This document shows, one piece after another, positions 10,546 to 58,824 of a stretch of 64,000 nucleotides of DNA (position 1 is the first letter of the stretch; each line of letters starts with the position of its first letter). The notes below the pieces were generated by a model. It was not told where the DNA came from and ran no database searches. It worked only from the letters and a program-made list of their open reading frames with translations. Location: NCBI GenBank assembly GCA_964016885.1, contig OZ024741.1:348130001-348194000 (forward strand), given 5' to 3'. Origin of the DNA: Eledone cirrhosa (taxonomy: Eukaryota). A program made the position numbers and the translations under genes.

Positions 10546-10667
<122 letters not shown>

Positions 10668-10765
10668 TATTGAAATTTCAGTTGGAAACAGAAAAGGTCA
10701 TAGAAATGAGAGTGCTCTATGTAAGTATCAGAGCAAAATTTAATGTATAAAATCAATACAATATA

Positions 10766-10843
10766 ATTACCTCATTACCAGAGGTTTCCCGAATGAGGCG
10801 AATACGAAATAAACGACTTCATTCGTTCGTCAGACGAGGCAAT
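10766..10843 (-). ncRNA. Type I hammerhead ribozyme (mirror of 16811-16888)
   Basis: Reverse complement of the + strand motif at 16811-16888. Confidence 0.75.
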
Positions 10844-11632
10844 ATAAAACATGGGCAAATACTTAGAAAAACACATCAAGAAAATCAAAAAAATATATAG
10901 ATAAATGAAATAGAAATTGAAATATATAAAAATCTATCAAGAAAAATAGTTAGGTGTGTGTATGTGTATGTATATACGCTCACAGATGTGCATATATGTA
11001 TATGTGCACATGTAAAAGTATAGTTAGAAAGTGTGCGTAATTATAAAAATGTAGGGCAAATGTATCTATATGTCTGTATTATACAGACAGAAATGGTTAC
11101 ATCGTAAATATAAGAATATAAAGTCGTGCGCATAAAAACGCCTGGACACTCGTACACTTAGATGCGGAAAGAAAGGAGGTAAAGAGGGTATAATAATTAA
11201 AAGAGAAGTATCTGTCTCGATATATTTATAAAAATATAGTAACGATAAATTAGAAAGACAAGATAGAAAGAAAAAATTAAAGAAAACAAAAAGGGGGGGG
11301 GGTACATACATACCCATACACGCGTGTCTCACAAAAGAAATGTAAAAATAATTATCCTTATATACACACGCGCACTTACACTTCCATACGTTCGATACGT
11401 ACATACACACACACACACACGCATACTTATACTCGCGCATATAAACCTGTTTGCATGCCCACGTATGAAACTGAGTAAGTAACAAAAGAGGGAAGGGGAG
11501 GGGGAGAAGAAAAAAGGAACAAAAACATAAAACCGAAATGTCAAAAACACGGATATAGAGACACTTACACATACGCATAATATATACATACACACACACA
11601 CAAACACCTGTACACACACACATACATACACG

Positions 11633-11702
<70 letters not shown>

Positions 11703-11706
<4 letters not shown>

Positions 11707-12639
11707 TTTAAATAAATGGAAACTATATTTATAAAACCATATTTATTTCGTTATATATATTTCAGGGATATCATATTAACAATATGTTATGCCGTCTTCA
11801 GACAAAATACAATATAAACAGTCTTATAAATAAATAGATACGACATACCTTTCAATCACCTTGCATTTGGGAGGTTGATTTGGTAGTAAAGAATATTGTG
11901 GACAGTTGTAAAAAGAAAGAGATAAAGAGAGAAAGAAAGAGAAACGAAGAAAAAGAAGAAATGCATGTGACTAAATAGAGGGATATAGAAAGATAGATAA
12001 AGAGAAGAACTTCATGTAAAGAAACAGAGAGAAATATATATAGAGAGAGGAAAGAAGAAAAAAGAAAGAGATAGATAGAGATAGATAGAGAAATTAGGAA
12101 GTTGAGTATCGGTTGATACATTTATTTATTTATTTATTTAGCTCTAGTATAAATGTAAAGAGAGATGTATGTAGTTAAGAGAGAAAATAGCCGTTATATA
12201 GAGAGAAAAAAGAGAAAATGAAACACAACCAGACATACACGATGCAGAATTTAAAACCGCTATGTTTTATCCGTAGAAAATATTAGTTCGTATAAAACAG
12301 GCATTATAATGTAAGTACCAGTATTCATGAATGAGACATGTATCTATAATGTGTGAAAAGTAATGATCTTATGTCTAGTTTTTAAAAATTCATATGTTTA
12401 TATCATAATTATAAACAAACTCCCAATTCACACGAAAACATTCTCATTGTGCTATAAAAATTCAAGTATATATTGTTAATATGATATCCCTGAAATATAT
12501 ATAACGAAATAAATATGGTTTTATAAATATAGTTTCCATTTATTTAATATCATAAATATACTCCAAATACTTGTTGAGTGCTTTTATATCAGTTATAAAT
12601 ATTTAATCGTTGTTAACCCAACAATTTAAATATAACGTT

Positions 12640-12642
<3 letters not shown>
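11703..12642. mobile_element. Nested PLE-derived fold-back inserted in the (TA)n tract of the left Naiad arm
   Basis: Absent from the right arm (~15960-16010). Minus-strand HHR at 11744-11809 (TATTTTGT CTGAAGA..GAAA TATATA TA ACGAAATA); inverted 3' half plus tail at 12469-12642; same family as 52040-52530. Confidence 0.8.
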
Positions 12643-12692
<50 letters not shown>

Positions 12693-14364
12693 CATACACG
12701 CACGCGCGCGCACATACATAGTCACTCATATACATATATAAAAAGTATACACACATTAAGGCGTTCAGCCATATTGAAACGTGGATAAATAAATACAAAT
12801 ATAAAATTATAGGATAGGCTGCGCAAAAATAAAATTAAAATAAAAATGAAAAATATATCTGGATTGAAAAACACAAAAGACAAGTATAATCAGTTAGTGG
12901 AGGAAAAAGGGAAGTAAAAGAAGGGGAAGTGAAAAATAGAAAATAGGAAGTGGATCGGAGAATAAGGGGGGGGGGGGTGAAGTAAAAATAAATAAAAGTG
13001 AAAATAAATGAAATTATTGACAAGGATAAGAATGAAAGTAAGTCAGAAAGGGTAATTAAAAAGAGAATAATAAGAGTTTATGGAGGATAAGTATCTGAAA
13101 GTGTGTTAAGTTTATATGAGCTGGAAAGCAGGTGTGATTTCATGTGTGGGCAACTGGTAAAAATTTCCGTCTTTGTGTTCAGGCAGGTCTTTGGTGATTT
13201 AAGATTTTGCAATATCCAAAATTTTTCATTTATGCAGAGCGTGCATTTTCTGGTTCCTCTAGCATATTTTTTAGATTGGTTCAAAATTGACCAATCTAGT
13301 TTATATTGGATGCCTTGGTCTTTCAAATCCCAGATTCTGCTAGCCAGAGCTGTTGTAAATCTTTTTTCTGGATGTCGAAAGGATGCGACATGTGAGTAAT
13401 AACGCGTTTTGAATCTGTCTTGCGTCATACCCACATATCGTTCACTGGTGACTGGATGGTTGTTGCTGATGGTTGTCCCATTAGCCGCATATACAATGGC
13501 TTTGGTGTTGCATTTACCTTGTAATGGGCATTCACTTTTGATTCTACAGGAGCAAGTTTGATTTTCTCTAGGTGATGTTTTGTTGAGGATATAGGACTTA
13601 ATAGGGGGACCGCAAGAATAGCTAATTTTAACACAGTTTCTGTTAAAGATCTTATAGTATCTATGTGTTCTAGGGAAATGTTTATCTAGGAGTTCTAGGA
13701 ATGTTTTGCCTACATTAGTTTTAACTGCTAGAGAGTAGGGGGTGTGAACCAGATTATTTTTATTTTCCTATTTTTATGTTTAATAGAGTTAGTGTAGTTA
13801 GGTATGTATTTAATCGGTTCGCTAAAGCCGCTATTTTGGAGGGCTTTATTATAGTAGGGGGATGCCTTATTGAAAATAGCTTCTGATGAAGGGAGGGTGG
13901 AGATCCTACGGCTAATATTAGGGATAAGGTTTTTAAAAACTATAGGTGGATGGCAAGATCCTTTATTTATATGTTTTAAGTTTTCATTAGGTTTATGGTA
14001 TGGTTTATAAGAAACAGTAGGCAAATCTAAGTTTATATCTAGGAAATCTACGTTGGAAAGGTTAGTATCAATAGTAATTTTAAGATTAAAACTAGCAAAG
14101 GTTTTTATTAAGTCTTTCCTTAATCTATCTAAGTTATGGCCTATGGTAGTATGGGAAAGTATTAGACCATCATCGCGATAAAGCCCAAAAATATGGTTAG
14201 GAAATTTTTCTTTAAGTGTATGTAAGAGGAATAGGCCGACCAGATCACAAACCTCGGCACAGTCATAAGAGCCCATTGAGACATCGAATGGGTTCTCTGG
14301 GTTAGATATTTTTAATGACACTTGGGTAAAAATATCTAACCCAGAGAACCCATTCGGTGTCTCA

Positions 14365-15564
14365 ATGGGCTCTTATGACAGTGCCGAGGTTTGTGATCTG
14401 GTCGGCCTATTCCTCTTACATACACTTAAAGAAAAATTTCCTAACCATATTTTTGGGCTTTATCGCGATGATGGTCTAATACTTTCCCATACTACCATAG
14501 GCCATAACTTAGATAGATTAAGGAAAGACTTAATAAAAACCTTTGTTAGTTTTAATCTTAAAATTACTATTGATACTAACCTTTCCAACGTAGATTTCCT
14601 AGATATAAACTTAGATTTGCCTACTGCTTCTTATAAACCATACCATAAACCTAATGAAAACTTAAAATATATAAATAAAGGATCTTGCCATCCACCTATA
14701 GTTTTTAAAAACCTTATCCCTAATATTAGCCGTAGGATCTCCACCCTCTCTTCATCAGAAGCTATTTTCAATAAGGCATCCCCCTACTATAATAAAGCCC
14801 TCCAAAATAACGGCTTTAGCGAACCGATTAAATACATACCTAACTACACTAACTCTATTAAACATAAACATAGGAAAAGAAAAATAATCTGGTTCACACC
14901 CCCCTACTCTCTAGCAGTTAAAACTAATGTAGGCAAAAAATTCCTAGAACTCCTAGATAAACATTTCCCTAGAACACATAGATACTATAAGATCTTTAAC
15001 AGAAACTGTGTTAAAATTAGCTATTCTTGCGGTCCCCCTATTAAGTCCTATATCCTCAACAAAACATCACCTAGAGAAAATCAAACTTGCTCCTATAGAA
15101 TCAAAAGTGAATGCCCATTACAAGGTAAATGCAACACCAAAGCCATTGTATATGCGGCTAATGTGACAACCATCAGCAACAACCAACCAGTCACCAGTGA
15201 ACGATATGTGGGTATGACGCAAGACAGATTCAAAACGCGTTATTACTCACATGTCGCATCCTTTCGACATCCAGAAAAAAGATTTACAACAGCTCTGGCT
15301 AGCAGAATCTGGGATTTGAAAGACCAAGGCATCCAATATAAACTAGATTGGTCAATTTTGAACCAATCTAAAAAATATGCTAGAGGAACCAGAAAATGCA
15401 CGCTCTGCATGAATGAAAAATTTTGGATATTGCAAAATCTTAAATCACCAAAGACCTGCCTGAACACAAAGACGGACATTTTTACCAGTTGCCCACACAT
15501 GAAATCACACCTGCTTTCCAGCTCATATAAACTTAACACACTTTCAGATACTTATCCTCCATAA
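14365..15564 (+). CDS. Truncated PLE (Naiad-type) reverse transcriptase C-half plus GIY-YIG endonuclease
   Basis: MGSYDSAEVCDLVG, GLYRDDGL, VDFLDINLDL, RKRKIIWFTPPYS, CPLQGKC..IVY..YVGMT..FKTRY..H, CTLCMNEK..LN..SCPH. Confidence 0.9.
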   Translation: MGSYDSAEVCDLVGLFLLHTLKEKFPNHIFGLYRDDGLILSHTTIGHNLDRLRKDLIKTFVSFNLKITIDTNLSNVDFLDINLDLPTASYKPYHKPNENLKYINKGSCHPPIVFKNLIPNISRRISTLSSSEAIFNKASPYYNKALQNNGFSEPIKYIPNYTNSIKHKHRKRKIIWFTPPYSLAVKTNVGKKFLELLDKHFPRTHRYYKIFNRNCVKISYSCGPPIKSYILNKTSPRENQTCSYRIKSECPLQGKCNTKAIVYAANVTTISNNQPVTSERYVGMTQDRFKTRYYSHVASFRHPEKRFTTALASRIWDLKDQGIQYKLDWSILNQSKKYARGTRKCTLCMNEKFWILQNLKSPKTCLNTKTDIFTSCPHMKSHLLSSSYKLNTLSDTYPP

Positions 15565-15954
15565 ACTCTTAGTATTCTCTTTTTAATTACCCTTTCTGAC
15601 TTACTTTCATTCTTATCCTTGTCAATAATTTCATTTATTTTCACTTTTATTTATTTTTACTTCAACCCCCCCCCCCCTTATTCTCCGATCCACTTCCTAT
15701 TTTCTATTTTTCACTTCCCCTTCTTTTACTTCCCTTTTTCCTCCACTAACTGATTATACTTGTCTTTTGTGTTTTTCAATCCAGATATACTTTTCATTTT
15801 TATTTTTATTTTATTTTTGCGCAGCCTATCTTACAATTTTATATTTGTATTTATTTATCCACGTTTCAATATGGCTGAACGCCTTAATGTGTGTATACTA
15901 TTTATATATGTATATGAGTGACTACGTATGTGCGCGCGCGCGCGTGCGTGTATG

Positions 15955-16018
<64 letters not shown>

Positions 16019-16810
16019 CGTGTATGTATGTGTGTGTGTACAGGTGTTTGTGTGTGTGTGTATGTATATATTATGCGTATGTGTAAGTGTCTCTATATCC
16101 GTGTTTTTGACATTTCGGTTTTATGTTTTTGTTCCTTTTTTTCTTCCCCCCCCCCCCCCTTCCCTCTTTTGTTACTTACTCAGTTTCATACGTGGGCATG
16201 CAAACAGGTTTATATGCGCGAGTATAAGTATGTGTGTGTGTGTGTGTGTATGTACGTATCGAACGTATGGAAGTGTAAGTGCGCGTGTGTATATAAGCAT
16301 AATTATTTTTACATTTCTTTTGTGAGACACGCGTGTATGTGTATGTATGTACCCGCCCCCCCTTTTGTTTTCTTTAATTTTTTCTTTCTATCTTGTCTTT
16401 CTAATTTATCGTTACTATATTTTTATAAATATATCAAGACAGATAATTCTCTTTTAATTATTATACCCTCTTTACCTTCTTTCTTTCCGCATCTAAGTGT
16501 ACGAGTGTCCAGGCGTTTTTATGCGCACGACTTTATATTCTTATATTTACGATGTAACCATTTCTGTCTGTATAATACAGACATATAGATACATTTGCCC
16601 TAAATTTTTATAATTACGCACACTTTCTAACTATACATTTACATGTGCACATATACATATATGCACATCTGTGAGCGTATATACATACACATACACACAC
16701 CTAACTATTTCTCTTGATAGATTTTTATATATTTCAATTTCTATTTCATTTATCTATATATTTTTTTGATTTTCTTGATGTGTTTTTCTAAGTATTTGCC
16801 CATGTTTTAT

Positions 16811-16888
16811 ATTGCCTCGTCTGACGAACGAATGAAGTCGTTTATTTCGTATTCGCCTCATTCGGGAAACCTCTGGTAATGAGGTAAT
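16811..16888 (+). ncRNA. Type I hammerhead ribozyme in the Naiad pseudo-LTR
   Basis: Stem I ATTGCCTCGT/ATGAGGTAAT, core CTGACGA, stem II CGAATGA/TCATTCG, GAAA, stem III CC-TCT-GG, GUA cleavage site. Confidence 0.8.
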
Positions 16889-16909
16889 TATATTGTATTG
16901 ATTTTATAC

Positions 16910-16944
<35 letters not shown>

Positions 16945-16952
<8 letters not shown>

Positions 16953-19900
16953 ATACTTGGGGAGGGTCATATTTGTGTAATATTGCCAGAATTAATAACA
17001 GAACACACTCACTGTTTGGTTGGTTTTCGCTTCTCGCTGACTTTTGTATCTGCGATCTAACTTACTCGGTCCTCAATGTTGCCATTGACTGACCGACGGT
17101 CAAAAATAATACAGATACAATATAGACAGAAATACATATATATATAGTTTACATAATTTACATAAATCTTTCGTTGCACATCTGCAACATCGTCAGTGGT
17201 GTTATATTTTTCCTCCTGTTGTGTTGTATGTCTACGCCATTTTTTATTCAGTCTGTCTATATTTTTATTTATTTATTTGCTTGCTTGTTTATTTTATTTT
17301 GTCTTCTTTGCGCATGCGTTTGCGTGTGTGTATAGTGTTATGTTTGCTGTGTGACTAGTGTGTATAGTGTTGTGTCTGCTGGGTGACTAGTGTGTGTTTA
17401 TGTACTTGTTGTTATTGTGCTTGTGTATGTATTTATTTATCTTATTTTATTTTATTTTATTTTATTTACTTATTTATACTTCTCTTTGGTCAGTGTTGTT
17501 TGTTTGGGTGTTGTTGTTGTTCCACTCATTCTTTCTGTTTAGCTTTGGTCTTCTAATTTCTATTTCACTGGCCTCTCTTATTTGCCTATCTGCTGGGTCA
17601 TTCCTATGTTTAGATATTCTAATTTCTATGATGTCTATGTTACCGTCGTGTTGTTGTCTAGCATGTTCGTATAGTACTGACCCGTTTTTTTGTCCTTTTA
17701 GTTCCCCCCAGTGTTGGTCTATCCTTTCACCTATGCTACGAGCTGTCTCACCTATGTATGTTGTTGTCATGTTTCTGCAAGTACCCTCTGTACATCTTAT
17801 GCTATAGACTACGTTTCTAGTTTTACAGTTTATCCGGGGGTTCACCTTACATATGATACATTTCCGATTGGTACAGTGGGTTTTCTTAAAAGGGTAGGTT
17901 TTGCTGATCAGGGATTTTATGGTGGTTCCTGGCTTTTCTACCACCTTTATTTTTAAGTGGGTCTTTCTCATGGCCTTTCTACACTGGTTAGCTAATTTCC
18001 CTCCAGGGGTGGCGTCCACAAACATGACACTCTGATATCTCTGGTTGTCGTACCATGATGTGGCCTTCCCTATCTTATGTCTAGCCCTATCTAAGCTATT
18101 CCATGATTTGCTCCTGTATAATGGGCAAATTCCTTTCATGTCCAGTTCTATGAGGGTCTTATACTTTTCTATGTCTCCTTCGTATACTCTGACTCTGTCT
18201 CTTTGGTTGTAGCCAGAGAACTGCATGCGGTTGATGAAGTATTGGATGTGTATTTCCATTTCTGTTGGGTCGCACATGCTGGACACATTCTTCATCACTC
18301 GTACCAAATCTGCGATCAGAATATTAAACTTAGCACTACTGGACATTGCTGAGTTTTTGAGTATCAGGTATTTGTAGGCCATGGGTTTAGCATAGTGTGA
18401 GTGGAGAATTTGGGCTCTCTCGTCTATAGTGTTAATCCAGAGTTCTGTGTCTAATACAGGTAGTCTATTGTTAGGGTGTTTGGAAAGGAAGTCGATAGTT
18501 ACAGTTATACTCTGGTGTATGGAATTAGCTATCTGCTGGATGCTTTCCATCGTGCTACGTTCTAAATCAAACTTGTTAGTGCTATCTAGTGGGGGTGTTC
18601 TTATAACTATATTGATATCGTCTACATAACGAGAGTACATGATGAGGTCTATGGAGGTTTCATTAAGGAGATCTTTAAGTCTCCTTTCCCACCATACCAT
18701 GAAAAGGTTGGCAACATCACCAGCTATGCTGACGCAGATGGCTGCTCCCTCATTTTGGGTGTAGATTTTCTCATTGAACTTAAATATGTGGCCCTTTAGG
18801 GTAGTTTTGATACTAGCCCTTATTGCATGTGCGACCATTTTTCTTACCTGATCATTGTTTTGGGGGGTCCGTATAGCTTTGGTCCATCCAATCCACCTTC
18901 CCATGGGAGTCTTTTTTGCCATCGAGGTTATGGTGGGGGATCTACCTCTTATAGGTATACTAGGGCAGAAACATCTAAGGTCATGGCTATCTAGGTAGTC
19001 AGTGTCGTAGGTAAGTCTAAGTAGGAGGCCCAGTTCGTCTGTGTCGACGTCGCAGAACTCCACCTCACTCTCAATGATCATCTCCACACATCTTTTCACA
19101 GCAAAATCAATGTTAATGGATGGGTACAGTGACACCACATTCATGCTGCCTATTATGCAGTTGGATAGGCTCCTGTTTTTGCTGCACTCACTAATTCTTC
19201 TGAGGAGGTCCTCTGTACTTTCACATACATCTTGAGACATCTTGATTATGGGGCGTATAACCATTGAGAGGAAGTAGGAGATCCTGTAGTTGCTAGCTAT
19301 ATTAGCTTCGCATACGGGTCTTGTTGGTGGTCCTGTTGTCGGGTCGTCGACTGCCTTGTGGTCTTTGCGGAGCCCATACAAGGGTGGTATGCCATTGTTA
19401 GACGCCTGGAAGTTGTTGGCAGTGCGTCTGCTTGGCTTTAGGATGTCAGTCCACATCATCATGTGAGCGTTGAGGATTTTTTCTCTCCCATCGTGTGTTT
19501 GTTGTGCAAGTTCGCTCGTGTTGGTGATGTGGGTTTGCATAGCCTCGATGTAGTTCGGCATGCTATCTATTGACATCCTACCAGACTTATCTGTGGGTAG
19601 ACACACTACCTCACCATCCCTTGTGCGCTGCTTGAGGCTAACCAAGCCTTCTATAGGTTCCCTCCCAAGTTGTTGGGCCTCTGGTCTGCTCTGTCTCTTA
19701 GTATACCTGTCTACTACTTGTCTAATCTTATTTCTAGCTATGGTGAACTGTGCCTCTGTCTCGTCATCTATTTGCTCTGGTATGCAAACTCTTTTATTAA
19801 AGGGTAACCTCGTAGGATAGATATTACCCATCTTATATGTTTTGTCAGCTGGGTTGAAAAATAGTTTCTCTAAGGGGTTGTCATTATATCTATCGTCATA

Positions 19901-21655
19901 GTTGTGTGTGTTGCTATTGTTGTTATCAGGGTGGTTGTTGTTGTTTCTATCATTAGCATTATTATTATTGTTATGATTGCTAGACGTATTGTTGTTTACT
20001 TCACCGTTATTGTTGTTGTTACTGTTATTTCTACCATTGTGGTTGTTACTATTATTATGTTTCTTGTTTTTGTTGATGTTGCTACATGTACTATTTCCAT
20101 TATTACCACTGTGGTTATTGTTGTTGTTGTTCGTATTGTTACCGTTATTACTACTGTGGTCGCTGTTGTTGTGTCTGTGGTTAATGTTTCTATTATTATT
20201 ATTATTGTGGTTGTTGTTGTTCTGTCTATCGCTAGTATTATTACCATTATCACTATTTCTCACTTTCCTGCCATTGTTATGGTTATGGCTGTTATTTCTA
20301 TACCCAGAGTTATTGTTTATATTACTACTACCGTTATTATTGTTGTTGTTGTTTACCTTTGCATTCCAACGTATTTTTGTGAAACACTTTTCCAGCTCCG
20401 TTTTGCACTCCATAGGGTTAATCTTTATGTAGATGGCAAATTTTGGTGGTAAACGTAGGATTTGTTGTTCTTGTTCACTGATTAAAGTGTTCCCATAGAT
20501 ATTTACTGTGTGGTCATTGGTAAATTCTTCCGGTAGTTTTACATCAGTCATACGGATATTGTCGATGTTATCTGGGTATTTTTGAGAATATTCGATTTTC
20601 CTTTCTTGTATTTTTTTCTTATTCATCCATTCTAATTTCTTCTTGAAATGCCTATTGCATTCGTTTCGAGCGTATTTCGTTTCACGTCGGATGACGCTCA
20701 TGAAGTTATCTCTCTCGTTTGCTGTGATGAGATTTCGGATTTCCTTACCGTTAATGCGTTTCTGTCTGTAGAGTGCGTTGACTTTTGTGTATGTTGTTCT
20801 TTTCATATTAACTGTTATTGTGTGTTTTAGTCGTTCGGCTTGTGTTTAGTTCAATAATAAATTACTTACTTGTTTTGATATGTTTGTTGTGTATGTTTTG
20901 GAGGAAACACAGTGTTTTAAGAAGCGGATTTGTTCTGTTGTTATTGTAGTTTTTATATAACAGAAAACAGTGTCTTTCAATAACCTTTCAACTTGGCACA
21001 AGCTAATGCCGTAGCGGCGATTAATTAGTTTAGCGAGGTTTTTTATATGAAATCGTGTGTCGAAACAAATATTTTTATACTTGGGGAGGGTCATATTTGT
21101 GTAATATTGCCAGAATTAATAACAGAACACACTCACTGTTTGTTTGGTTTTCGCTTCTCGCTGTCTTTTATATCTGCGATCTAACTTACTCGGTCCTCAA
21201 TGTTGCCATTGACTGACCGACGGTCAAAAATAATACAGATACAATATAGACAGAAACACATATATATAGTTTACATAATTTACATAAAATTTACACTGCA
21301 ACATCGTCAGTGGTGTTATATTTTTTCCTCCTGTTGTGTTGTATGTCTACGCCATTTTTTATTCAGTCTGTCTATATATTTATTTATTTATTTGCTTTTT
21401 GTTTATTTTATTTTGTCTTCTTTGCGCATGCGTTTGCGTGTGTGTATAGTGTTATGTTTGCTGTGTGACTAGTGTGTATAGTGTTGTGTCTGCTGGGTGA
21501 CTAGTGTGTGTTTATGTGCTTGTTGTTATTGTGCTTGTGTATGTATTTATTTATCTTATTTTATTTTATTTTATTTTATTTACTTATTTATACTTCTCTT
21601 AGGTCAGTGTTGTTTGTTTGGGTGTTGTTGTTGATCCACTCATTCTTTCTGTTTA
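16945..21655 (-). mobile_element. Near full-length Neptune-type PLE with direct pseudo-LTRs (16945-17540 and 21075-21655)
   Basis: Two ~590-bp direct repeats, each spanning ORF end, 3' UTR and ORF start, flank the RT-EN ORF. A weak HHR-like motif at ~17155-17202 is partly deleted in the upstream copy. Confidence 0.9.
17474..21094 (-). pseudogene. PLE RT plus GIY-YIG endonuclease ORF (~1206 codons) with one in-frame TAA at 20846
   Basis: The 82-aa and 1110-aa ORFs are in frame, 13 codons apart. Motifs: LYGLRKDHK, PTRPV, GSMNVVSLYPSI (catalytic D to N), YVDD, VMFVDATPGG, Cys-rich linker, VVY..YIGETAR..ER..QH, LNRKNEW. Confidence 0.9.
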
Positions 21656-22044: not shown

Positions 22045-22475
<431 letters not shown>

Positions 22476-22494
22476 GTATGTATATATATATATA

Positions 22495-22897
22495 TAAATT
22501 AATAAAAACAATAAAATAAAAACAAAGAACAAGTTCTTTATATTAAAGAATTCATAATTTTACGGTCGTTTCTGGAATGTATATGTGTGTTGGTATGTTC
22601 TGAGGACGGCATGTATATGTGAAGGTATTTATATTTCCTCTGATAATTTGTAATATTTTTATATAGATCTATATGATATACATACCAACACACATATACA
22701 TCCCAGAAACGATCGTAAAATGATGAATTTTGTAATATAAGGAACATGTTCTTTGTTTTTATTTCATTGTTTTTATTAATTCATCTTGACTCTGTTTTCC
22801 TATGATTTTTATCGAAAGTCTTTGAATGAAATTTGGATTACATTGAGTTCTTCATACGGATTGGACACTACCGTATATTTTGGTAGATTTATCTACA
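22495..22897. mobile_element. PLE-end fold-back (same family as 43665-44212)
   Basis: Inverted arms 22495-22597 and 22681-22780; + strand CTGAGGA...GAAA CGATCG TA; tail matches the reverse complement of 43665-43725. Confidence 0.75.
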
Positions 22898-22913
22898 TAT
22901 ATATATATATATA

Positions 22914-24086
22914 TAACGAAGGAAATGTGGTAAGGAACCAGGTGGACCATAACGCACCAAAGTACTCAATACTTGAGGTAGTAGAGTGGGTAATAGGAAC
23001 CAGTAAGACCCCGACAGCTGAGCTCAAGCCGTTTCGACGGCTAATTCTGGACTAAATGAAAATGTATCCTGGTATTTACCCGCACCACCCCCTCCCCTAG
23101 TCTATGATAGATTTGGCGGACTCCGCCCTTTATAGCAGTTGGCTTAGACCCCGGATACTCGCCCCCTTTTTCCGACCGCTCCCACTATTCTCTGTGCCCT
23201 CTATATTTCTTAGTGGCACTTATGCCTTATTTTTTCGTTTCAGTATTTCTTGCTTCGCTTTTCTTCTAGGCGGGGTGGATTCTGAATTTATTTCTCCGTT
23301 TTCTACCTTTATTTCGTACGAACTTTCATGTAGCTTGTTTTAGATCTTTTAGAGTTAGCATTAGTACTTATTTTTCTCGGGACTCAGAATTATCCTCTCG
23401 TACAAGTTCACTTTGCTGCACTGGGTCGTTGCTGGCCCGGGATGGATACCTTTATTGTTTATTTCGTGGTAGTCTCTTTAGTATTTGGGCCCCTTTTGTT
23501 GACCCGTCACCGTATCATTTACGTACTTATACCTCTTAAAAGGGTCCTTGCCTATTTCGTCCCACCTAGTTCTTTTACTTATTTCGTTATTTCTTTATTT
23601 ATTTATTTCTTTACTTCTTTCTTTCTTTATTTATTTTTTTCTAGCCTAACAATAGCCTGAGACCTAGGTCGTAGAATTTAATTTACTTTACTTTTTTCTT
23701 TACACTTATTTGCTTTTCTTCACTCTCAGTATTTTTTCTTTCCTATATATTTCTACCCCCCATTGTTCTACCTACCGTTCCGACTTCCTCCCCCTCCCCC
23801 TCCCCTGTATCTTCTTTGACCTCATGCCCAGCTGTAGCTGGCACTACCAACGCTTGATTGGATCTACTCCACCCCCTCCCCTCTTTCTCCTACTGGCAGG
23901 TTTAGCCACCATCTCCACTACTAATTTGCAACCACAGAATTACTACTGATTTTTGACAATCACTTTCACCATATATGGAATTACCCCTTGAGAAGATCGG
24001 CTATTTAAATACCAGGATAAATTTTCATTTAGTCCAGAATTAGCCGTCGAAACGGCTTGAGCTCAGCTGTCGGGGTCTTACTGGTT

Positions 24087-24090
<4 letters not shown>
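22914..24090. mobile_element. PLE-derived insertion: inverted pseudo-LTR/tail (22914-23078) plus 3' UTR and HHR on +
   Basis: 22993-23078 is the reverse complement of ~24006-24090; flanked by (TA)n; family fragments also at 33912-34032, 34815-34985 and 58665-58795. Confidence 0.8.
23983..24076 (+). ncRNA. Type I hammerhead ribozyme with U3-A8 core variant
   Basis: ACCCC TTGAGAA GATCGGCTA...TAGCCGTC GAAA CGGCTTGAGCTCAGCTG TC GGGGT. Confidence 0.8.
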
Positions 24091-24125
<35 letters not shown>

Positions 24126-33863: not shown

Positions 33864-33914
<51 letters not shown>

Positions 33915-34100
33915 AACCAGGTGGACCATGACACACCAAAGTACTCAATACTTAGGGTAGTAGAGTGGGTAATAGGAACGAATAGGACCCCGACGGCTCA
34001 GCTCAAGCCGTTTCAACGGCTAATTCTGGACCAATATATATGTATTTATATATAATTATATATATATATATATATTTATATATATTTATATATTTATATA

Positions 34101-34774: not shown

Positions 34775-34819
<45 letters not shown>

Positions 34820-34979
34820 AACGAGTAGAACCCCGACGGCTGAGCTCAAGCCGTTTCGACGGCTAATCTGGAGCTCAGCCGTCGGGGTCCTACTCGTTCC
34901 TATTACCCACTCTACTACCCTAAGTATTGAGTATTTTGGTGCGTTATGGTCCACCTGGTTCCTTACCACATTTCCTTCG

Positions 34980-35040
<61 letters not shown>

Positions 35041-37960: not shown

Positions 37961-38307
37961 ATGCAAACAAAAAAGATTCAACAGAAACTTCTAGCTGTTT
38001 TACAGCTTCCCTTGTTTCTTCTTTTCCTTATCTTTTTCGATTTCTTATGCATAATCTGCCTCCCATTGCCTTCAGTATTTCAAATGTTATTGTTATTTTA
38101 TTTTTTCTCTTCTTTAATGATACTTTTTTTTAATTAGTTGTCTTCCTATCTCTGTATGATTACCAACTGTAAGGAGTACTCGATACTTCCCCTAGTCTGT
38201 CATGGCTATGCAGACGTGTTTAAACTTAATAAATATATATACACCCACACGCACATACACACGCTTATGCATACACAAACATACATACGTTTATATATAT
38301 ATATTTA

Positions 38308-39308
38308 TATTGTTATATTTTGGGAGGGTCATGTTGCCAATAAGAAACACACGCACCATTTGTGTAACTTCAATTTATTATAATAAATTTATAAATTTAG
38401 GAATTTATAAATTTCTGGTTGGTTGGTTGGTTCCACAACCAGATAGTTGTTTATATATATTGTCAAAGTTCTTTCGTCACACATTATGTGACCTCTTCAG
38501 TGACTTGGGATTATTTTCTTTGTTTTTGTGCCTCTCCTTTTTTCTGTTCTACGCCATTTTGTTTCTGTGTGTGTGTGTTGTGTGCTCAGTCTGCGCATGC
38601 GCCACATCCGGGTGTCTGTGTGTGTTTATATTTGTTTATTTACATGTTACCGGTTGGTTGTTTGTTCTATGTGTGTGCTAAAATAGAACATAAGGGTAAA
38701 TTAGAGAACATAGAAATAAAATAGAATCTACACACAGAAAAGACGCAATGTTTAGACAAATCACAGAGGCAATAAACATAAAAGAATTACAACCAAAATT
38801 AAATAGAAAATATGAGTGGAACAGCAACATCACAACTTACAATTAAGGACAAAATGAAAACACACACACACATAGAACAAACAACCAACCGGTAACTGTA
38901 AATGTAAATAAACAAATAAATAAACAAATATAAACACACACAGACACCCGGATGTGACGCATGCGCAGACTGAGCACACAACACACACAGAGAAACAAAA
39001 TGACGTAGGACAGAACAAAGGAGAGGCACAAAAACAAAGAAAAGAATCCCTAGTCACCGAAGAGGTCACAGAATGTGTGACGAAAGAACTTTGACAATAT
39101 ATATAAACAACTATCTGGTTGTGGAACCAACCAACCAACCAGAAATTTATAAATTCCTAAATTTATAAATTTATTATAATAAATTGAAGTGAAGCATCTG
39201 GTGCGTGTGTTTCTTATTGGCAACATGACCCTCCCAAAGTATAACAATATCGGTTTCAACACACGGTTTCAGATAAAGAATCTTGCTAAACAAATTCAAA
39301 AACGAAAT
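38308..39308. mobile_element. 5'-truncated Neptune-related PLE with inverted pseudo-LTR
   Basis: 38308-38678 is inverted relative to 38860-39250. The spacer encodes an EN C-terminus (HRKDAMFRQITEAINIKELQPKLNRKYEW). HHR-like motifs at 38462-38504 (-) and 39053-39095 (+, mutated to CCGAAGA). Confidence 0.88.
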
Positions 39309-39311
39309 ATA

Positions 39312-39353
<42 letters not shown>

Positions 39354-43573: not shown

Positions 43574-43664
43574 ATATATTTTATATATATATATATATAT
43601 TATATATATATATATTATAGATATATATATATATATTATATATATAAATATATATATATTATAT

Positions 43665-44212
43665 ATGTAGATAAATCTACCAAGAGTTTACGGTAGTGTC
43701 CAATCCGTATGAAGAACTCAATGTATTCCGGATATCATGGAAAGAAGAGATGTAATGAAAATCCAATTTCGGTGAAAGATAAACGGTATACAGAGTCAAG
43801 ATAAAATATTAAACAAATAATGAACAAACAATTCCTTATATTAAACAAAAAAAGTTCACTATTTAACGATCGTTTCTAGGGTATATATGTGTTATAATTG
43901 GTATGCATATTTAACAGATCTATGTACAAAATTATACAAAATTATACAAATTATCAAGATTAAATATACATACCTAACTCATATATACGCCGTCTTCAGA
44001 AATAATTTATTTCTGAAGACGGCGTATATATGAGTTAGGTATGTATATTTAATCTTGATAATTTGTATAATTTTGTATAATTTTGTACATAGATCTGTTA
44101 AATATGCATACCAATTATAACACATATATACCCTAGAAACGATCGTTAAATAGTGAACTTTTTTTGTTTAATATAAGGAATTGTTTGTTCATTATTTGTT
44201 TAATATTTTATA
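43665..44212. mobile_element. Perfect ~200-bp-arm fold-back of a PLE end with an HHR in each arm
   Basis: Centre at 44006. + strand HHR 44008-44152: TATTT CTGAAGA..GTATATATG...CATATATAC..GAAA CGATCG TT AAATA. Confidence 0.85.
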
Positions 44213-45910: not shown

Positions 45911-45944
<34 letters not shown>

Positions 45945-45949
<5 letters not shown>

Positions 45950-46205
45950 CTTTGGGAGGGTCATGTTGCCAATAAGAAACACACGCACCAGTTGCTTTCA
46001 CTTCAATTTATTATAATAAATTTATAAATTTAGGAATTTATAAATTTCCGGTTGGTTGGTTGTTTCCACAACCAGATGGTTGTTTATATATTGTCAAAGT
46101 TCTTTCGTCACACATTCTGTGACCTCTTCAGTGACTGGGGGTTCTTTTCATTGTTTTTTGTGCCTCTCCTGATAAAGAATCTTGTTAACCAAATTCAGAA
46201 ACGAA
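45945..46205. mobile_element. Neptune-related pseudo-LTR fragment with short inverted tail
   Basis: Same family as 38308; HHR-like motif at 46093-46135 (-). Confidence 0.8.
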
Positions 46206-56859: not shown

Positions 56860-58655
<1,796 letters not shown>

Positions 58656-58824
58656 TATATATATAACAAAAGAGGGAGTGGTAAGATAACAGGTGGACCC
58701 TAACGAACACGAGTACTCAATGCTGGTGTCTTAGTTCGGATCTAGTTGTCGAAACGGCCGGAATTCAGCCGTCGGGGGCTTCACACTTTTCCTATATATA
58801 TATTATTATGTAATAAACAACAAA

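Follow-up and report, generated by a model that had tools for sequence, protein, structure and literature searches.

Positions 22916–24088 of the window (the whole stretch of 64,000 nucleotides that was analysed) hold two 5'-truncated arms of a Hydra-clade Penelope-like retrotransposon, inserted head-to-head in a (TA)n repeat, and twin target-primed reverse transcription on one RNA is the likely origin of the insertion. The locus is one ordinary copy among thousands of a young, very abundant Penelope-type element, and its value rests on the statistics of this family rather than on the locus itself. What we observe directly across the family is the inverted structure, two fixed 3' ends (S and L), the pairing of one S with one L end, and the statistics of the 5' breakpoints. 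Positions within the element are given on a family ruler on which the L end is 0 and the S end is −80.

The inverted insertion and its family

At this locus a short arm on the minus strand and a long arm on the plus strand are flanked by TA arrays on both outer sides. The insertion has the following parts:

22897–22915, no strand: left (TA)n target repeat, from the sequence
22916–23078, minus strand: short inverted arm, which is the L arm, ruler 0 to −162; 99.4% match to the family ruler
22916–22995, minus strand: 80-nucleotide tail between start sites S and L, in the short arm only
23077–23078, no strand: head-to-head junction with a two-nucleotide overlap, TA
23077–24088, plus strand: long arm, which is the S arm, the final 1,012 nucleotides of the 3' UTR/pLTR, ruler −1091 to −80; 98.1% match to the ruler
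23984–24076, plus strand: predicted type I hammerhead ribozyme with a UUGAGAA core, GAAA, and a GUC cut between 24071 and 24072, from the MFE fold
24002–24036, plus strand: predicted pLTR promoter, from the pile-up of 5' breakpoints and the extra G
24089–24124, no strand: right (TA)n target repeat, whose first TAT matches the template after S

The arms match each other over 86 nucleotides (22993–23078 and 24006–24091) at 99% identity, and the junction shows one substitution, four nucleotides into the long arm. A sequence-only reading of this DNA had described a tail of about 75 nucleotides missing from the long arm, about 900 nucleotides of upstream sequence missing from the short arm, and outer ends that merge into TATA. 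All three descriptions hold: the tail has 80 nucleotides (77 without the TAT that it has in common with the target), the upstream sequence has 929, and both outer ends run into the (TA)n repeats listed above. Since the L and S arms, which stop at −162 and −1091, both reach above the predicted start, both would have been copied from a long transcript, within its downstream pLTR, with an early stop in each case; the L arm may also have been trimmed later. Mirror-image coding in the long arm (complement-only or reversed) was considered and rejected, as the translations were unconvincing and the arm is 3' UTR. An unrelated repeat at 22180–22896 uses the same left TA array; it includes a 105-nucleotide inverted pair (22494–22598 and 22680–22784) and has relatives at 38281–39350, 43648–44197 and 45912–46170.

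A search of the element's own genome (3.0 Gb) returned 2,535 candidates, and all 40 that were scored match the long arm at 97–100% identity, so chance is not an explanation. The ORF of one full copy (L032) encodes 719 amino acids with YRDD, in the reverse transcriptase (RT), and VIY...YIG, in the GIY-YIG endonuclease; the window copy lacks this ORF. Compared by eye, the L032 protein is collinear with Hydra-1_Obim and with the published Hydra proteins in the supplement of PMC8557442. It carries SDKTG, a CNCPDRSIC linker, and a single cysteine between VIY and YIG (no CCHH). Judged from the predicted protein, the DKT, the CxCX5C and the absence of the CCHH cysteine pair agree with the definition of the Hydra clade in the cited passages of PMC8557442. 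Pfam gave no match for the six window ORFs or the family ORF, and PDB gave none for the family ORF. The family inserts into (TA)n, as the Hydra clade does. In full tandems the 80-nucleotide tail runs on into the 5' UTR and ORF, and four loci (L032, L134, L140 and L145) combine partial tandems of the pLTR with an inverted, 5'-truncated copy. A tail variant in the internal pLTR (L005/L032, 5230–5245) leaves the frame open about 70 codons upstream of the ATG.

Older copies of the family are present in the window at 34818–34980, 33904–34034 and 58633–58803, and include a reciprocal mini (a short S+L insertion; S to −135, L to −112) as well as solo or decayed arms. A second Penelope-like family is arranged head-to-head at 10666–16916, with arms at 10738–11700 and 15951–16916 (98%) and ORF pieces at 13078–15564. 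Its left end has about 70 nucleotides of extra tail and its right end has none, which is the one-tail pattern again. Next to it, at 16945–21655, lies a Penelope-like element with flanking direct repeats of 598 nucleotides and a frame of 1,123 amino acids on the minus strand (17474–20845), whose asparagine-rich insert recalls the N-rich inserts of Adineta Penelopes.

Two fixed 3' ends and the head-to-head junctions

Among 72 loci ascertained by body sequence, with duplicates kept, all 61 TA-joined 3' ends are at S (30, one of them two nucleotides off) or at L (31). Exact-pattern counts across the genome gave 7,065 S ends and 20,982 L ends; this 3:1 excess of L is explained in part by older variants, which break the S pattern, and by solo L arms. 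In the template, TAT comes next after both S and L, in keeping with the expectation of the sequence-only reading that tabulated endpoints would fall on TA or ATA in the consensus. The match at both ends is suggestive and rests on two sites, in a neighbourhood where 12 of 298 positions begin a TAT or an ATA. A further TAT at −55, inside the tail between S and L, is used only 25 times, so the TA match is compatible with priming but is not what picks the site. The same reading had placed priming at UA-rich sites of the tail, and this did not hold; the sites are two fixed positions in the family, and the tail is 56% AT. When the S–L region was folded, no clear structure emerged (z −1.98, weak centroid). 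The sequence CTGGTTCCT(A)TTACC forms an imperfect direct repeat, with one copy at S and the other just before L, 64 nucleotides apart (ruler −88 to −71 and −24 to −10); its copies in the window, at 24080–24088 and 22926–22940, are candidate binding sites for two subunits.

The pairing of the ends is highly uneven. In 3,315 short head-to-head insertions, with total gaps matched for each type, S is paired with L in 3,256, S with S in 22, and L with L in 37, and the tail is accordingly on one end only in 3,256 of the 3,315. Independent choice of ends would give at most 50% mixed pairs, so the 98% found for S+L implies that the two primings are coupled, and the coupling points to a single RNA in one complex. 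The S pattern misses older variants, and any bias from this would be toward L+L. An earlier pairing of ends by distance alone (31 of 32 S+L) was discarded because several of its long-range pairs are separate insertions. At L140, L145 and L065 we found short tandems of the pLTR with the first 116–820 nucleotides after L, and an L arm folded at −67; these forms show priming farther downstream or re-copying of the 5' region.

Junctions were parsed from HSPs of at least 18 nucleotides and at least 88% with TA-rich outer flanks, and the rest were dropped. A greedy parser failed on older variants, and its list of solo arms serves for named examples only. The 5' breakpoints of the two arms are within 10 nucleotides of each other in 64 of the 88 junctions found via an S or L end on one contig (C1), and the arms are reciprocal in 20 and nested in 4, a ratio that is inflated among minis because S arms shorter than about 17 nucleotides are missed. 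This supplies the frequency of reciprocal arms that the sequence-only reading had wished to see counted, and reciprocity in the sense of that reading is common. When the 19 long insertions are taken separately, the S arm has the longer reach in 10 and the L arm in 9. All 19 of these long junctions are distinct, so the inversions arise anew at insertion. In 9 of the 88 junctions the L arm stops short of S, which is the geometry of L1 twin priming, and elsewhere the arms overlap by up to 2.1 kb. There are also S arms without an L arm (L158, L162, L170 and L179) or with an L arm of six nucleotides (L154).

Snap-back geometry, with an overlap and a loop of at least 3, fits 8 of 149 junctions when it starts from the L (tailed) arm and 16 of 149 when it starts from the S arm; an S-first cDNA is unable to supply the tail. 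A small snap-back class is likely real, as in the six-nucleotide overlaps of L135 and L177. The argument that cDNA snap-back alone cannot give the observed pattern therefore stands for most junctions but not for this small class. Joining by microhomology, the other part of the same proposal, fares similarly. Where an arm stopped early, 20 of 31 junctions have an overlap of at least two nucleotides (null mean 4.9, maximum 13 in 3,000), but in 68 insertion-free minis with run-off ends, overlaps of 0, 1 and 2 nucleotides make up 50, 38 and 12%, matching a null of 47, 38 and 9%. Inserted bases, often local snippets, occur in 58 of 149 junctions, and insertions are present in 24 of 55 early-stop junctions. 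Microhomology is enriched only at truncated junctions, and full-length and truncated L1 insertions show the same split (PMC11702581).

5' breakpoints and the template RNA

The 5' breakpoints of both S and L arms cluster at −131 to −141, 30 nucleotides below TATTTAAA. We take TATTTAAA at 24002–24009 and the initiator-like TTAGTC (A at 24031, ruler −137) to be promoter motifs. Arms that start at −137 or −132 are preceded by an untemplated G in 28 of 38 cases, compared with 12 of 62 elsewhere (p = 9e-8); at these positions 14 of 21 S arms and 14 of 17 L arms carry the G, and 6 of 8 eligible junctions have it on both arms. Genome-wide there are 163 junctions with the G on both arms, against 63 with a swapped-letter control. 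Counted by eye, linkers of 0–2 nucleotides are present in 33 of the first 50 both-G junctions listed and in 2 of the first 50 controls, and a single A or T separates C and G in 23 of the first 50 both-G junctions listed. In L1 and SVA, an extra G of this kind is a mark of the cap (PMC11702581, PMC4859970). The extra G in this family is cap-like, and both arms look like run-off cDNAs.

The stretch from −184 to −92, in the MFE fold of the L007 copy, has the three-stem layout of a type I hammerhead, with no unusual stability (z −0.09). The UUGAGAA core is presumably a U3–A8 hammerhead variant. Rfam returned no hammerhead match and five weak unrelated matches. In 115 loci the predicted ribozyme cut (−96) is the end of both arms, against 0 loci for a control site 15 nucleotides away, and these counts suggest in vivo cutting by the pLTR ribozyme and that the cut RNA can be integrated. 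The putative start site, cap and ribozyme cut are all read from DNA.

The two arms of an insertion also agree with each other. The predicted ribozyme cut ends both arms in 4 of the 88 junctions, one arm only in 1, and neither in 83 (p = 2e-6); identical breakpoints are found in 33 of 143 junctions, against 11.6 when permuted; and the long or short length class is the same for both arms in 86 of 88. In seven junctions with an arm that starts at −132 with the G, none of the partners reaches −134 or beyond, against a background of 50%. Minor alleles are common to both arms 32 times in 114 minis, against 5.1 when permuted, and L033 has 9 shared minor alleles against at most 2. For five long reciprocal insertions, a shared haplotype is clear in two (L168 and L038), and L014, L041 and L191 are uninformative. 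If the first cDNA served as template for the second arm, this would equally explain why alleles are shared, why 5' ends match and why some palindromes are perfect, and gene conversion that homogenises the arms could be a source of allele sharing. The reciprocal, non-overlapping and solo-S cases speak against copying from the first cDNA as the main route.

Self-priming followed by EN-mediated resolution has been proposed in PMC3846280 and PMC8557442, and a form of it can be fitted to this family: after one priming, a nuclease would cut the stem of a hairpin or snap-back DNA intermediate with an 80-nucleotide stagger, and later trimming would give reciprocal arms. Such a course accounts for the pairing of S with L, for alleles common to both arms and for their matched 5' ends; there are perfect palindromes, and the junctions noted above (8 of 149 starting from the L arm and 16 starting from the S arm) fit snap-back. 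However, it predicts an always-nested arm, an overlap and a loop of at least 3, whereas 20 of 88 junctions are reciprocal, 9 do not overlap, and the long insertions divide 10 to 9. The single A or T in 23 of the first 50 both-G junctions listed is too short for a loop, and the overlap in minis equals the null. We regard this course as unlikely. Two independent primings on two separate RNAs, joined by microhomology, would be the loosest form of the double priming put forward in the sequence-only reading, and would explain reciprocal arms, a G on both arms, and arm overlap without strand displacement. Independence alone does not yield 98% S+L, both arms at a rare ribozyme cut, a length-class match in 86 of 88, or shared alleles, and we find it very unlikely; a possible two-RNA form is a dimer that holds two transcripts of one source locus asymmetrically. 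Family-wide, the idea of double target-primed reverse transcription is supported in its two primings and amended in that they are coupled, which points to one RNA, and the interpretation offered by that reading is, as a whole, partly supported.

Inverted repeats in TA arrays are unstable, and longer symmetrical palindromes might have been inserted and lost their central DNA later. Microhomology at truncated junctions fits deletion too, and some long reciprocal cases, the window locus included, may be explained in this manner. Sharp breakpoints (−141 to −131, and −96), the untemplated G and the S+L pairing of outer ends cannot be produced by palindrome loss, which we rate as highly improbable. 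It is scarcely credible that a few master loci, already inverted, were the templates from which whole inverted units were copied, or that these units are an assembly artefact. Some short junction types do recur, but these sit at modal run-off sites, the 19 long junctions all differ, and many different joints are also present in short-read contigs of one sample (possibly the assembly's own source). Junction diversity largely refutes both versions. The window's own junction is not bridged in the short-read contigs, which is evidence neither way.

Twin priming on one RNA and its relation to known systems

In the reading that we prefer, twin priming on one RNA, the GIY-YIG nuclease of the element would cut both strands of the TA repeat. 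One target 3' end would prime at L and the other at S, 80 nucleotides upstream, each with a three-nucleotide TAT match. Both cDNAs would then extend to the 5' end of the RNA, which may be a capped start near −137/−132, the presumed origin of the G, or the ribozyme cut at −96, or they would stop early, as at −162 and −1091 in the window. The cDNA 3' ends would be joined blunt or with added bases after run-off, and through microhomology of 2–4 nucleotides after early stops; a template jump between cDNA ends could take the place of end-joining. Arms that overlap by as much as 2.1 kb would require strand displacement, or else that one RNA serves the two arms in turn. The palindromic (TA)n is compatible with this model.

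We give roughly even chances to a wider form of the model, in which Hydra-type Penelopes, and perhaps all EN+ ones, normally integrate by coupled double priming. A dimer on the tail of one RNA would offer each target end its own start site, both RTs would run to the 5' end, and one would jump onto the displaced cDNA of the other. If this is true, a single cause underlies the inversion of the pLTRs, the presence of a tail on one side only and the 190-bp palindromes in their thousands, and the junctions record the start site, the cap and the in vivo ribozyme cut. The origin of Penelope tandem and inverted repeats and of their tails is a question named as open in the cited passages of PMC8557442. 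The counts yield sharp predictions for an existing in vitro system, namely that each insertion has one S and one L end, that a single RNA is used, and that the G on both arms depends on the cap. The layout, the tail, the TA bias and the two start sites are already published; a search of the openly accessible literature found no paper linking Penelope inversions to twin priming, coupled or otherwise.

The Hydra-clade elements described in PMC8557442 have a tail of 30–40 nucleotides and a unit of less than 3 kb, whereas the family here has 80 nucleotides and about 3.55 kb, and the L032 ORF has RWR where the clade has RWK. In the cited passages of that work the tail is ascribed to EN-mediated resolution, and the origin of the inverted repeats is left open. 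Adineta Penelopes (PMC3846280) resemble the family in their head-to-head inverted pLTRs, an optional tail on one of these, and palindromic junctions. However, the self-priming model described for them predicts nested arms, and most junctions here do not fit that geometry.

PAc, a Poseidon element of Anolis (PMC11167929), is like the family in its AT-rich target and in starting reverse transcription at two internal sites, between which the tail lies. In vitro, PAc nicks and extends both target strands, and it is predicted to be dimeric. Its start sites lack homology to the cut DNA and show no strand preference, in contrast to the TAT after both sites and the one site per end found here. The cited part of that study reports no reads ending at the ribozyme cut, and does not explain inverted copies by double priming.

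In L1 twin priming (PMC11702581, PMC4859970), as in the route proposed here, both target ends prime on one RNA and the inverted halves are end-joined. Full-length 5' ends of L1 carry an extra G from the cap, as those of this family appear to do. In L1, however, the second site is variable, the arms abut without long overlap, and inversion is a minority outcome, whereas in this family the second site is fixed, the overlap is long, and both arms can reach the 5' end. The family works like L1 twin priming but is not that case.
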